This document shows positions 7,341 to 42,720 of a stretch of DNA of 55,968 nt, one piece after another; the stretch's first letter is position 1; each line of letters opens with the position of its first letter. A program made the translations under genes and the position numbers. Under the pieces are notes generated by a model. It had not been told where the DNA came from and made no database searches. It saw nothing but the letters and a program-made list of their open reading frames with translations. Where the stretch lies: positions 1 to 55,968 of the IMG/VR virus record IMGVR_UViG_3300044815_000221. One strand, written 5' to 3'. Source of the DNA: a virus (taxonomy: Duplodnaviria > Caudoviricetes).

Positions 7341-7444
7341 AAAAAAGCCCGCCGATCATTTCAGATCAACGGGCTGCTGCTGATGAGCCTCTAGGATTAT
7401 TACTGAGAGCCGCTAATGGGCTGCGATGTCAGAAAAAAACTCTA
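7341..7444 (-). promoter_or_regulatory. conserved leader L1: -10-like box, small hairpin, GGCTCAT box, intrinsic terminator immediately before the TMP1 ATG
   Basis: - strand GGCTCATCAGCAGCA-GCCCGTTGATC-TGAAAT-GATCGGCGGGC-TTTTTT-AATT-ATG; homologous to four other sites. Confidence 0.8.
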
Positions 7445-7475
7445 CGCAACTTATCTTTGAGACCATGTATAGCTT

Positions 7476-7637
7476 TCAAAGATAAGTCGTGTAGAGCTTG
7501 ATGGAAAGACCGACCACAATCAGGATAACAAAAAAGCTAATAGCGAAGTGCGCTAAACTTATCCACCCACAATGAGGGCAAAAGAATGCAGTGTTTGAAA
7601 TTTTGCTCTCGCAATCTGGGCAAGACTCAAGGCTCAT
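7476..7637 (-). CDS. zinc-ribbon membrane protein (53 aa, not in the ORF track)
   Basis: Manual translation MSLESCPDCESKISNTAFFCPHCGWISLAHFAISFFVILIVVGLSIKLYTTYL; same CPDC..CP.CG plus TM architecture as 22802 and 55705. Confidence 0.75.
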   Translation of the reverse strand: MSLESCPDCESKISNTAFFCPHCGWISLAHFAISFFVILIVVGLSIKLYTTYL

Positions 7638-7694
7638 ATTGCGATATTAACATGTCGGCAAAACTAGCGAAAGAATGCGAAGGGAAGCGGCTTG

Positions 7695-7862
7695 CTACTT
7701 ATTGTTCGCTTCCTCGTAGAAAGAGGTGAGTGTCTCTATATATAGATGCACTCGCTCAAATGGGAGAGACAGGATAGCTTCCTCGCTCCATCCGGTTTCA
7801 CGGGCCAGTACCAGCACGGCTTTCGCCATTTCCTTCTGATACTGTGCTTCGGCCTGCGCGAA
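7695..7862 (-). CDS. frameshift extension (GT-like C-terminal part) of tail chaperone
   Basis: +1-frame ORF FAQAEAQYQKEMAKAVLVLARETGWSEEAILSLPFERVHLY... begins at TCG-TTT-CGC (7858-7866); homolog at 21886-22056. Confidence 0.7.
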   Translation of the reverse strand, partial: FAQAEAQYQKEMAKAVLVLARETGWSEEAILSLPFERVHLYIETLTSFYEEANNK

Positions 7863-8469
7863 ACGACTGCCGCCAGATCAAACTGGCGGCCCTCATATCT
7901 AAAATGTCAACCCCATCGAGTTTCTCAAAAACTTGAAGTTCCAGCGTCCCATCGAGGGAATACTTCCCATCTTCAGAGAGCAGCGTTTTAATCTGCTTGC
8001 CAATCAAAAAACATTCGCGCTTGAGTCCGGTCAGTTTCTCTTTTTCGGCTGCTATCAATTCCATTCCTGTAATTCTATTACCGAACTGGACTCGGTTGTA
8101 AACGATCCCATTATTCTCATAACCGACTGGTAGCTTGACTTCGCTCTCAGAGATGAATTGAGCCGTCCGGCCTTCTACTCCTTCAGCCAGAAAGTCGTTA
8201 TAGCCAGTCATCAAATCATCAATATCAATGACATCCAATTTAAGTAATGTGCTGAGAGGAACAGGAAGGGGCAACGTGCCAAAGGCCGTAATTGCCCCGC
8301 GCAAGACCATGAGTTTATGTTGTGTCGGAATCTCGCTCTGTTGGTCGGCGTCCATCTCAAAGAGTTCACGCCCACGCAGCCGTTTCCCAAATGAGACGTG
8401 CGTATGCCTGACACCCTTGCCGTCAGTGTGGCCGATCACAAGTTCGATTGTTTTTGATGTTGCGTCCAA
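7798..8469 (-). CDS. tail assembly chaperone (helper copy)
   Basis: Between tube and TMP; internally duplicated L..G......V.FG.R..G.EL unit; paralogs at 21971 and 30974. Confidence 0.75.
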   Translation of the reverse strand: MDATSKTIELVIGHTDGKGVRHTHVSFGKRLRGRELFEMDADQQSEIPTQHKLMVLRGAITAFGTLPLPVPLSTLLKLDVIDIDDLMTGYNDFLAEGVEGRTAQFISESEVKLPVGYENNGIVYNRVQFGNRITGMELIAAEKEKLTGLKRECFLIGKQIKTLLSEDGKYSLDGTLELQVFEKLDGVDILDMRAASLIWRQSFRAGRSTVSEGNGESRAGTGP

Positions 8470-8478
8470 CGCTTCTCC

Positions 8479-8910
8479 TTACAGCATGACCATATTTGCG
8501 GCACGCAGGCCGAAGGTGAACATGCTTGCCTCGTTGCTACTGGCGTTGTGCGTCTCCGGCTTGAACCTCGTCGGCACGCAATCCTGCAACTCGTATTCGT
8601 CCACAGGCGTTAGCCCCGACTCATCCATCACGATGAAGCGAACGGTGCGTCGCGTGACATCAGTACCCTGCACAAAATCTTGAATCCAAGCCATCAACTC
8701 GCGACCACTCTCATTAACAGCAGTCGCGTGCTTAAAGGTCAGTTCACCGATCTTGAAGTTACCGCGTAATAGACGTGGGTTCGCTTCGTTGCCGACGTGG
8801 AGTTCCGTGACTGTGTGCTCCATGTCAGGCATCGTTACCTCTGAAGCGATGAGCGACGTGACGCCATCAATCTCCAGAATGTATCTGCTTGCATTCGTGC
8901 CCTGCCCCAT
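8479..8910 (-). CDS. tail tube protein, T4 gp19/CIS-like
   Basis: 143 aa after the sheath; G...IGELTFK, WI......RR...I..D...PV..Y.L..C.P pattern. Confidence 0.85.
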   Translation of the reverse strand: MGQGTNASRYILEIDGVTSLIASEVTMPDMEHTVTELHVGNEANPRLLRGNFKIGELTFKHATAVNESGRELMAWIQDFVQGTDVTRRTVRFIVMDESGLTPVDEYELQDCVPTRFKPETHNASSNEASMFTFGLRAANMVML

Positions 8911-8944
8911 AACTCAAATTCTCCTTAACGGTTGAAGAAACTTT

Positions 8945-41049: not shown

Positions 41050-41580
41050 TTACTCGCGTTTTGCGGTAAGCCACGTTTGCACGATTGGCACGGCCATCTT
41101 CAACCTGACCGGCATGTCTGGGTTATCGAAGAGCTTGCTCACGCGCCAACGCGCCTGAAGATGTTGGGCTTGCACCCATAGCGCGTGTTCGCCGGAGTAG
41201 GCGGCAGAGAATCGCTCGGCGCGTTCACGCTCCAGCGCGGCCTGCGTGCTCACTAATTCGCCATCCTTCTTCGCCAGGCTTAATCCCGTATTGAGTTGAG
41301 AGATTTCCTTTTCGCAAAGAGGCTCGGCGAGCCAGAGACGATAAAGCGCGTCGTTGCGCGTCGCCATGTAGCGTGCGTGCACCGCGCCGTTCGTGCGCTG
41401 CTCGATGCCGTGAACGCGGGCCATATAGTTGCCGTCGGGCAGATTCTCCTTGACGTTAGTGGGTGAATTAGTTTGTGCGTTGATCGCGGGAATGCTGAGG
41501 GCTGCCATGAAGAGCATCATGGTCATAACAACTGTCAATGTTTGTCTGATTTTCACTGAGAACGTTTCTCCTTTCGTCAT
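41050..41580 (-). CDS. exported protein, possible degenerate spanin-region gene
   Basis: Signal-peptide-like N-terminus followed by helical region. Confidence 0.4.
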   Translation of the reverse strand: MTKGETFSVKIRQTLTVVMTMMLFMAALSIPAINAQTNSPTNVKENLPDGNYMARVHGIEQRTNGAVHARYMATRNDALYRLWLAEPLCEKEISQLNTGLSLAKKDGELVSTQAALERERAERFSAAYSGEHALWVQAQHLQARWRVSKLFDNPDMPVRLKMAVPIVQTWLTAKRE

Positions 41581-41794
41581 CCGTTGCGGCGGCGGCGCGC
41601 TCCACCTCCGCTAAATCGCTTTTTACTTTCGCGCGCTGCGAATTGATCTGCGTCACTCGCGTCTCCGGCGCGGAGATTTCTTCCTGCGCTTTTTCGAGTT
41701 GCGCCTCCGTCCCCGCACGTTTCCTGTTGTGCTAATCAAGCATTGCTGCAAGTTGGCTCAGGAGCCGGAGCGCGAGTGCGCGCAGTGCTTGTGG

Positions 41795-42238
41795 CTAGAT
41801 GTCAATCGTCGCCTGAGTAGCGCTATCGCTCGAAGCCGTTTCGTCGCCTGCGTCGGTTGTCGTTTGATCTCCCGCGCCTGCATCCGTCTCGGACGCATCA
41901 ATCACAAACGGCGGCGGTGGCGGGTTTTCACCAGGCTGACCGATGGCTTGCAGCCGCGCCACATCGTCGCGCAACTCCTGAATATCGCTCGTCAGGTCAA
42001 CGGGCGTGCCCGCTGCCGAGAGTTTCAATTCGGCGTCGGCAAGCTTCGATTGAAGATCGCTCATCCGACTGTCCATCCGCGTAGCAGTGTCGCTGATTGC
42101 CGCGCGCAATTCCGCTTCGGCGTCACGCATCTGCTGAATCTGATCTCTCATCTCAATTTCCTCGCTTTCAATTTTGGCGATCCGTTTGTGCAACCCTCCG
42201 GTCAGAAGGTCGCGTAGATTTGAAAATGTTTGGCTCAT
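41795..42238 (-). CDS. coiled-coil protein
   Basis: 147 aa heptad-rich with acidic tail. Confidence 0.6.
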   Translation of the reverse strand: MSQTFSNLRDLLTGGLHKRIAKIESEEIEMRDQIQQMRDAEAELRAAISDTATRMDSRMSDLQSKLADAELKLSAAGTPVDLTSDIQELRDDVARLQAIGQPGENPPPPPFVIDASETDAGAGDQTTTDAGDETASSDSATQATIDI

Positions 42239-42245
42239 TTGTTTG

Positions 42246-42281
42246 AAAGCCCGATGGCACGTTTTCCGCGTGCCATCGGGC
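42246..42281 (-). terminator. intrinsic terminator after csbD-like gene
   Basis: GCCCGATGGCACG-CGGAAAA-CGTGCCATCGGGC-TTTC. Confidence 0.7.
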
Positions 42282-42313
42282 CGTTGACATTTGCGGCTGA
42301 GGATTAACGATTC

Positions 42314-42544
42314 TTACTTTTCGTTGCGCTCGCGGACGGCCTCGCTGATGTTCGCCGCCGCATCGTCAACGCCTTCCTTCAAATCGCCAACCGCTTCCTG
42401 CGCGACGCCTGCGGCGTGATCACGCTCGCCCTCGCGTTCGAGACCCCTGTTGCCGGTCGCCTCGCCAACAGTCTCCTTCACGTCGGCGGCGATCTGCTCC
42501 GCGCGGCCTGCGACTTGATCTGCATTCAAATTCTTCTCACTCAT
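42314..42544 (-). CDS. CsbD-family protein
   Basis: DQV.G...Q....VKE.VG.ATGN..LE.EG..D...G..QE.VG..KE; ACAGGAG RBS. Confidence 0.8.
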   Translation of the reverse strand: MSEKNLNADQVAGRAEQIAADVKETVGEATGNRGLEREGERDHAAGVAQEAVGDLKEGVDDAAANISEAVRERNEK

Positions 42545-42614
42545 AATTTGCTGTTCTCCTGTCATGTGAATTGCGGAAGACCCGCGTCGGTTTAAGAGCG
42601 GCTCGGTGAAAACG

Positions 42615-42720
42615 AAAAGCCCGCCAGTCTGCATTAGACTGACGGGCTGCACATGAGCCGCTCGGTTGTTATTGAAGTCCTGTGGCAGGACGCTCTGTTC
42701 GATTTCGGAGAGTATTACAA
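42615..42720 (-). promoter_or_regulatory. conserved leader L5 at start of late (lysis/packaging) operon
   Basis: - strand GTCCTG-CCA-CAGGAC...GGCTCATGTGCA-GCCCGTCAGTCT-AATGC-AGACTGGCGGGC-TTTT. Confidence 0.82.

Follow-up and report, generated by a model that had tools for sequence, protein, structure and literature searches.

How a Mu-like phage in which no Mor or C activator is recognised might time its late genes is the question raised by IMG/VR record IMGVR_UViG_3300044815_000221, a whole IMG/VR provirus of 55,968 nucleotides (nt; completeness estimate 69%) that was analysed at its full length and is called the window below. The window is a Mu-like transposable phage, with GemA-like genes among its minus-strand early genes. 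A search of its six-frame translation with the Mor family activator model (PF08765) gave no match at E <= 10, in agreement with an earlier note on this DNA, which had recognised no Mor/C-type activator and had proposed control of the late genes by attenuation or antitermination at five repeated leaders. This is supported as the natural reading, because a promoter-proximal terminator, conserved in relatives, follows a sigma-70-like promoter and no Mor/C match was obtained. The leader is a predicted RNA of ~80 nt with two small hairpins, P1 and P2, and an intrinsic terminator, and a small zinc-ribbon protein related to Com of phage Mu is the candidate trans-acting factor. In the reading that we favour, to which we give a probability of roughly 55%, the Com-like protein would hold P2, the terminator could then not form, and the late operon would be read through.

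Five terminator leaders on the minus strand

The earlier note had placed five leaders (L1 to L5) on the minus strand, each with an invariant GGCTCAT box. Alone, the heptamer is unremarkable, with 15 matches in the window compared with 7.9 expected, and 2 of 100 shuffled sequences reach 15. Five of the 15 matches sit 0-5 nt before the terminator core GCAGCCCGT-N10-30-GGCGGGC, which occurs five times, always on the minus strand, and in none of 100 shuffles. A terminator scan ranked the leader sites 1-3 in the region 5000-24999 and 1-2 in the region 25000-44999, and the total number of terminator-like sites was near the shuffle level in both (26 vs 23.5 and 25 vs 24.1, respectively). A covariance model (R1) was built from 15 leaders, three of them from the window, with L2 and L5 left out. 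Run with filters off, R1 returned exactly five full-length matches in the window, scoring 52.5-77.5 bits, the next full-length match reaching 14.8 bits, which bears out the five copies (Table 1).

Table 1. Positions of the leaders, their parts and principal genes in the window (box, GGCTCAT or its equivalent; R1, covariance model score).
Feature	Position	Strand	R1 (bits)	Parts or properties	Context
Leader L1	7341-7425	minus	77.2	P1 7408-7422 (AGCC-CAUUAGC-GGCU); box 7383-7389; terminator stem 7346-7375; U-tract 7340-7345; -10-like TAGAGT 7439-7444	upstream of tape measure protein (TMP) gene 4961-7336
Leader L2	15868-15946	minus	52.5 (outside seed)	P1 15931-15942; box 15908-15914; terminator stem 15871-15905; -10-like TAAGTT 15955-15960	upstream of protease gene 14795-15856
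Leader L3	22688-22768	minus	70.5	P1 22751-22765 (GGACU-UUCAC-AGUCC); box 22725-22731; terminator stem 22693-22722	upstream of cassette A first gene 21971-22663
Leader L4	31668-31750	minus	77.5	P1 31733-31747; box 31707-31713; terminator stem 31673-31702; -35 TTGCTC ~31787-31792; -10 TATATT 31764-31769	upstream of cassette B first gene 30974-31639
Leader L5	42613-42694	minus	64.4 (outside seed)	P1 42677-42691 (GUCCUG-CCA-CAGGAC); box 42653-42659; terminator stem 42618-42648; -35 TTGCCA 42732-42737; -10 TACTCT 42709-42714	upstream of CsbD-like gene 42314-42547 and packaging genes
Complement of L5 box region	42596-42604	minus		9 nt	downstream of L5 terminator; L5 only
Com-like zinc-ribbon gene	15971-16141 (alternative start 16204)	minus		four conserved Cys, CxxC...CxxC	stop codon 24 nt before L2 match
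TMP gene	4961-7336	minus			downstream of L1
Major head protein gene	13142-14209				late gene
Mu I-type protease gene	14795-15856	minus			downstream of L2
AAA protein gene, MuB position	50030-51121	minus			early gene
Mu transposase gene	52083-54242	minus			early gene

Every copy stands just before a late gene, the distance from leader end to start codon being 10-70 nt in all five (TMP 7336, protease 15856, cassette A 22663, cassette B 31639, CsbD-like 42547). The terminators lie so close to the start codons, with no room for a promoter in between at L1 and L2, that the genes can only be transcribed through the leader terminator. The view that each copy heads a structural operon held in part: terminase and portal genes were confirmed among the late genes of the L5 operon, the lysis function assigned to that operon is unconfirmed, and L1 lies inside the tail cluster, between a chaperone-like gene and the TMP gene.

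From 5' to 3', the transcript would consist of P1, an A/U-rich linker of 16-19 nt, in which the 'AAT-like triplet' of the earlier note dissolves, and a strong intrinsic terminator. Upstream of P1, a -35 element (TTGCnn) and a -10 element (TAnnnT) separated by a spacer of 16-18 nt scored at least 7 of 12 in 21 of 24 leaders, compared with 592 of 3000 random places, and the -10 element mostly ends 10-16 nt upstream of P1. The best such promoters of the window are those of L4 and L5; the -35 regions of L1-L3 are weak. P1 is a hairpin of 4-6 base pairs (bp) with a leader-specific sequence. In an alignment of 23 leaders from 13 records, fitted to R1 and thereby tilted towards its structure, 94% of P1 cells were paired and four of four pairs had changed on both sides; for the terminator, 98.6% of cells were paired and six of 12 pairs had changed on both sides, including G-C to A-U at an otherwise constant base. 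A GC-rich stem of 12-15 bp followed immediately by a U-tract or T-rich tail was kept in 23/23 leaders, including 5/5 in the window. The stems thus vary in sequence and stay paired, as had been noticed in the window, across all of these records.

GGCTCAT had been read as a signal in its own right, and this was not borne out. It is the 5' arm (GGCU) together with the first loop bases of P2, a GGCU-loop-AGCC hairpin with a 4-bp stem and a loop of 5-10 nt, whose 3' arm AGCC is at the same time the first four bases of the terminator 5' arm. P2 and the terminator are mutually exclusive. P2 was paired in 92 of 92 cells of the 23 leaders, the only deviations being a double change to GGCC/GGCC in G005 and a single wobble, and the box variants of relatives (GGCUCGU, GGCUCAC, GGCCCAU and GGCUCUA) keep their pairing with AGCC or GGCC. 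Calculated fold energies in the window were -21.6 to -31.3 kcal/mol for the terminators and -2.4 to -3.2 kcal/mol for P2; when P2 was enforced, a 9-bp hairpin (7 bp in L1) was left, set apart from the U-tract. P2 is far weaker than the terminator, from which termination is predicted by default, with a factor needed to hold P2.

Two further elements were considered and rejected, namely a leader peptide starting from the ATG inside the box, where relatives have GTG, ACG, TTG or TAA and the upstream purines are too close, and a long-range pairing of the box with the 'AGCG' that flanks P1, which is not conserved. The complementarity of the L5 box to a downstream segment, pointed out in the earlier note, is real (Table 1). 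An extra hairpin of ~35 nt is inserted into the linker between P1 and P2 in L143 (8244-8360, plus/minus orientation: minus) and L147 (716-830, plus strand), so the spacing of the two hairpins is not fixed.

The leader and its Com-like neighbour across phages

Related loci were collected via the protease, with a leader threshold of E <= 1e-6. The closest relatives (protease identity 43-56%) have a leader directly before the protease gene. In total, 13 records held 23 leaders: five in the window, three in G004, two each in G002, G006, G008 and G010, and one each in G003, G005, G007, L147, L149, L150 and L166, with two weaker copies in G006 besides. All 18 copies outside the window, in 12 related records, precede late genes. 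The nearest named homologs of the window protease come from Acidobacteriota metagenome bins (Pyrinomonadaceae and Blastocatellia), so that the host is probably an acidobacterium. The 12 leader-bearing relatives are Mu-like and probably acidobacterial too. Among the remaining 146 Mu-like protease loci, which are more distant (71 viral and 75 metagenomic, not de-duplicated), no leader was found except for a weak one in L088.

Rfam 15 gave no match to the window, either at gathering or at E <= 1, so that the covariance-model search of Rfam and phage genomes recommended in the earlier note yielded no Rfam family and a leader before late operons in 12 relatives. That note had also named a host-wide interspersed repeat as an outcome that would contradict its proposal, and by searches that did not extend to the chromosome of the actual host the leader is not one. 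Its exact motif gave one chance match in IMG/VR and, in 185,579 species genomes (one each), 26 single matches, all in GC-rich sequence and nearly all in an apparent coding context, with a T-tract in just one (L024). In a sample of 151 Acidobacteriota genomes, R1 gave three weak matches, each of them an ordinary terminator that lacks the box. Distant relatives of the protease are present in 4 of 401 Acidobacteriota genomes, with a leader in none of the four.

An IMG/VR scan was also made with the box and the terminator base as sole criteria, using no protein. It recovered 44 stretches, 37 of them from new records, with GC contents of 0.39-0.68 and R1 scores of 25-67 bits. The leader of the 37 new stretches is a looser form, and Rfam gave no match at gathering in 12 loci of this set.

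The gene immediately upstream of L2, overlooked as a candidate factor in the earlier note, encodes a small zinc-ribbon protein (Table 1). Counterparts lie immediately upstream of a leader in G002, G003, G004, G006, G008 and G010, giving a recurrent order of com, leader and late gene, and the four cysteines are invariant in the family alignment (A6). Comparison of A6 with Mu Com (AF083977) gave 96.4% in hhalign (E 1.3e-9), the A6 hidden Markov model (HMM) scored Mu Com at 32.6 bits, and all seven members match at least one of the two PHROG families to which Mu Com itself has matches (gpCom, translational regulator). The JGI label 'phage FluMu protein Com' is attached to 5 of 15 homologs, and Pfam Zn_ribbon_Com is below its cut-off in three of the seven members. 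NCBIfam returned no Com model match, Mu Com itself included, the PDB no Com relative by sequence, and a search for relatives with one Com protein its own record only. By these comparisons the open reading frame (ORF) is a Mu Com homolog, and its product is put forward as the candidate trans-acting factor for the leaders. Com-like ORFs were present in 11 leader-bearing records and at none of the leaderless loci.

The same neighbourhood was seen in the set selected by motif alone. A Com HMM match on the leader strand lay within ~450 nt upstream at 15 of the 37 loci, and an ORF with CxxC..CxxC within 500 nt upstream at 15 of 35 assessable loci (random places: 68 of 2000); taken together, the two tests pick out 19 of the 37 loci. 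The upstream ORFs that were tested match both Com PHROGs (6/6), and the downstream genes that were tested are endolysins or amidases (3/3). In Mu, gene C lies directly upstream of the late promoter and the endolysin gene (C-Plys-lys); therefore, com in these phages occupies the place of C.

As described in the portions of PMC6483171 available to us, Com is a zinc-finger protein that binds a short mom mRNA hairpin adjoining a translation-inhibition hairpin and activates translation. According to the same portions, systematic evolution of ligands by exponential enrichment (SELEX) and footprinting defined its site as a 3-4 bp stem with a C-G closing pair and a six-residue loop with CC(N)2-3GAG, of which the first loop C and GA are protected, proximal to the inhibitory hairpin (PMC6483171). 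In the Mu sequence as we read it, a hairpin AUGC-CUGCGA-GCAU stands just before the mom start region. Among the clade leaders, the first loop base is C in 24/24 P2 and 18/24 P1 hairpins, GAG occurs in 9/24 P2 and 10/24 P1 loops, and P1 is closed by C-G in 17/24; in 15 of 23 leaders the P2 stem also has GAG immediately on its 5' side. Within a leader, the loops of P1 and P2 are more alike than when the pairings are shuffled (the observed value was attained in 34 of 20000 shuffles), being the same or one base apart in five distinct combinations, for example CACGAGC/CACGAGC, CAGAGC/CAGAGC and CGUGAGA/CGUGAGA. Of 32 distinct new leaders, 21 have a P2 loop of the form C-N2-3-GA, with several exact instances of CC(N)2-3GAG, and 17 have an upstream hairpin with a Y-N2-3-GA loop, compared with 63 of 6400 shuffles. 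The exact published features of the Com site are present in G005, L239, L249, L256 and the GGCC-CGYGAGA-GGCC group. The P2 loops of the window are CAUGUGC (three times), CAUGC and CAUCAGCAGC, all five starting with C and having U-A as the closing pair.

Readings of the leader

In the Com-dependent reading, a sigma-70-type promoter would fire into the leader at each of the five sites. By default the RNA would end at the terminator and the operon would be off, since P2 alone is far too weak to prevent this. The Com-like protein would bind P2, keeping AGCC from its terminator partner, and in many relatives it would bind P1 too, because P1 has the same kind of loop. The leftover upper stem would then stand 4-5 nt from the U-tract, and RNA polymerase would read into the operon. 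The logic of Com at Mu mom, where a short hairpin, once bound, causes the adjacent inhibitory hairpin to open, would have moved from translation to termination and be used at all late operons. As to what opens the first leader, leak combined with positive feedback and read-through from early transcription are our guesses.

Several observations weigh against this reading. The com gene of the window sits downstream of L5, L4 and L3 and so does not suffice to account for how the first leader would be opened, and upstream of L5 a Com-like ORF is absent. By either test, 18 of the 37 motif-selected loci have no Com-like ORF, and G005 carries a leader with no Com-like ORF in 39.6 kilobases. The window protein is the most divergent family member, with a weak PHROG match (E 0.011) and no match to Pfam Zn_ribbon_Com. 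None of the five P2 loops of the window has the GAG or terminal GA of the Com motif, and only in L1 does the P1 loop (CAUUAGC) resemble its own P2 loop. Co-occurrence of com and leader within the acidobacterial clade could reflect shared descent. P2 is nearly invariant, its covariation coming from one record alone, and the tilt of the pairing counts noted above belongs here too.

The near-invariance of a stem of just 4 bp would also be expected if P1 and the box acted like nut or put sites, loading a factor, possibly the Com-like protein, onto RNA polymerase so that later terminators are ignored as well and the P2 pairing is incidental. A hairpin followed by a conserved linear element right after the promoter is the nut-type layout, and long late operons would gain from processivity. 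However, a complete leader is present at every operon, which would be superfluous in a processive system, the box is always 5-10 nt from the terminator and always complementary to its 5' arm, and no N-, Q- or NusG-like protein was recognised among the ~40 ORFs scanned with Pfam or PHROGs, scans that were general, included no search aimed at Q or N and did not cover every ORF. We consider such processive antitermination unlikely. A 5' hairpin followed by an A/U-rich stretch and a U-tailed terminator is a common layout of small RNAs, and the five ~80-nt transcripts could themselves be the product, with GGCUCAU pairing to targets such as AUGAGCC at start codons; three minus-strand ORFs do start with ATGAGCC (19389, 42238 and 51121). 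Met-Ser starts are common, however, the box varies in relatives while its pairing with AGCC or GGCC is kept, and the position before operons and beside com would be left unexplained, so that we regard a small-RNA function as very improbable.

Unregulated terminators that end the upstream unit, with promoters restarting transcription and a partial leak, would account for the leaders as plain operon boundaries, copied along with morons or cassettes and unrelated to Com. L1 is missing at its position in G005, G006 and G010, as is the extra small ORF upstream with which it comes, a pattern suggestive of moron-like insertion; L3 and L4 were duplicated along with the cassettes; and the likeness among L1, L2 and L5 is limited to ~50 nt. 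A promoter firing into a terminator 80 nt away nevertheless makes sense only with controlled read-through, and the P2 complementarity, loop type and com neighbourhood kept across phages of 0.39-0.68 GC would go unexplained, making this account improbable. The Com-like protein could instead act post-transcriptionally, activating translation or stabilising the RNA in the manner of Mu mom, with the hairpin and U-tract being inhibitory or protective and not a regulated terminator. At L1, L2 and most protease leaders of relatives, the start codon does lie 8-20 nt past the hairpin without a clear Shine-Dalgarno sequence. At L3, L4 and L5, by contrast, the start codon with its own Shine-Dalgarno sequence is 25-70 nt beyond the hairpin, which therefore cannot mask it, and the long GC-rich stem with an immediate U-tract in 23/23 leaders is what a terminator requires. 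Translational activation is the sole function shown for the Com family in the available portions of PMC6483171 and PMC3299994; here we consider a post-transcriptional role quite unlikely, if not as improbable as plain boundaries.

With slightly less than even confidence, we extend the Com-dependent reading beyond this window: Com-family proteins may be a widespread, unrecognised class of phage late-gene antiterminators that replace Mor/C in many Mu-like phages by way of one or two Com-type hairpins, the leader having multiplied over the late operons in this clade and being carried with duplicated tail cassettes, and com, since it lies behind the first leader, forming a positive-feedback switch. 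If true, this would explain the timing of late genes in Mu-like phages without Mor/C, give Com, known for one translational job at mom, a second and much broader role, and add an RNA leader family that is absent from Rfam and present in phages of very different base composition. With a protein of ~55 amino acids (aa) and an RNA of ~80 nt, the system is small and could serve as a compact protein-controlled terminator switch. A full-text literature search, with subscription journals outside its scope, found no description of a Com-linked terminator leader, nor did the available portions of PMC4378225 and PMC2628397 contain one.

Genomic surroundings and known systems

Cassettes A and B arose by duplication and have since diverged, and their tail genes are paralogous to the native ones of the phage. 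An 89-nt block holding L3 and L4 is 86.5% identical between the cassettes, so the leader was copied as part of the duplicated block; the idea in the earlier note that the cassettes are wired to the late signal of a helper or an invader is not supported. The Mu F-like minor head gene, which is one gene in relatives, is split into an N-part (26273-26962) and a C-part (16650-17168), cassette A (17169-26272) separating the two parts and cassette B (26963-35894) separating the N-part from the portal gene. At the end of each cassette is a plus-strand endonuclease-like gene (25179-26318 and 34651-35892; phrog_4645), for which no relative was found in IMG/VR. The best sigma-70-like promoter matches of the scanned parts, at 23414-23443 and 32534-32562 on the plus strand (10 and 11 of 12), are directed towards the plus-strand operons of cassettes A and B, respectively, and diverge from the leaders.

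Immediately upstream of L1 (7476-7637, minus strand), of L3 (22802-23098, minus strand) and of the first late leader of G004 (L132:15261-15608, minus strand) are small ORFs whose products combine a zinc ribbon at the N-terminus with a membrane segment. An early zinc-ribbon ORF (49545-49775, minus strand; CGDC...CxxC), kept in G004, G005 and G006, is without a family match, as are the zinc-ribbon ORFs 43029-43295 and 44715-44927; 43987-44472 was dismissed as a second Com-like protein (HMM E 0.074, not significant). The gap of ~450 nt between the F C-part and com (16205-16650, minus strand) has no convincing ORF, and relatives have a conserved Cys-containing ORF of 74-80 aa there. Between the GemA-like genes and L5, the minus strand encodes a DUF5131 protein (46262-47194, E 4.6e-55) and a DUF4326 protein (43292-43603, E 1.4e-16), in a region otherwise not common to relatives; megablast of 40000-48000 against the phage collection gave no match. 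A stand-alone receiver domain ORF of the early region (45356-45802, minus strand; Pfam Response_reg E 6.6e-24) has no output domain and a 48% identical stretch in L273. It was ruled out as an ANTAR-type regulator, having no ANTAR domain and no room for one.

Default termination governed by a weak RNA structure that overlaps the terminator 5' arm and is held by an RNA-binding protein is known from the ribonucleic antiterminator (RAT) targets of BglG and LicT and from the ANTAR proteins AmiR, EutV and NasR, and ANTAR targets comprise a pair of similar small hairpins, of which the second overlaps the terminator. The leader shares the overlapping weak hairpin, and default termination and protein holding are predicted for it. 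In contrast to those systems, the candidate protein here is of the zinc-ribbon type, the loops differ from ANTAR hexaloops, and the control would concern phage late genes and not a metabolic operon; the ANTAR domain model (PF03861) gave no match at E <= 10 in the six-frame translation of the window, and no CAT/PRD protein was recognised there. Lambda Q binds DNA and sigma-paused polymerase near +16/+25 and acts processively from one site, and transcription from pR' to tR' gives the 6S RNA. A seemingly constitutive promoter, a short terminated leader and late genes reached by read-through, marking the late switch, would be common to both, whereas here there is one leader per operon, and the conserved element lies ~45-55 nt into the RNA and abuts the terminator.

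The leaders stand at the same operon boundaries as the C-activated late promoters Plys, PI, PP and Pmom of Mu, before lysis and packaging genes and gene I (protease), and in the wider set com is at the exact position of C, directly upstream of the endolysin gene. They differ in that no Mor/C protein is found, the -35 element is recognisable, and control would act after initiation. A further parallel is Mu Com at mom, with a homologous small zinc-ribbon protein (CCCC) whose gene is directly upstream of the RNA element and a short hairpin, its loop starting with C and often containing GA or GAG, immediately 5' of an inhibitory hairpin. In the leaders, however, the part of the inhibitory hairpin is taken by an intrinsic terminator that has a U-tract, can stand as far as 70 nt from the start codon and has four bases in common with the small hairpin; there are usually two small hairpins, up to five copies per genome, and a promoter belonging to the leader. 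Known Com homologs precede mom or a DNA methyltransferase gene, as stated in the available portions of PMC3299994. The genes downstream of the leaders belong instead to lysis, head and tail operons, being protease, TMP, tail cassette and packaging genes in the window and endolysin genes in the wider set, and not mom or DNA-modification genes.

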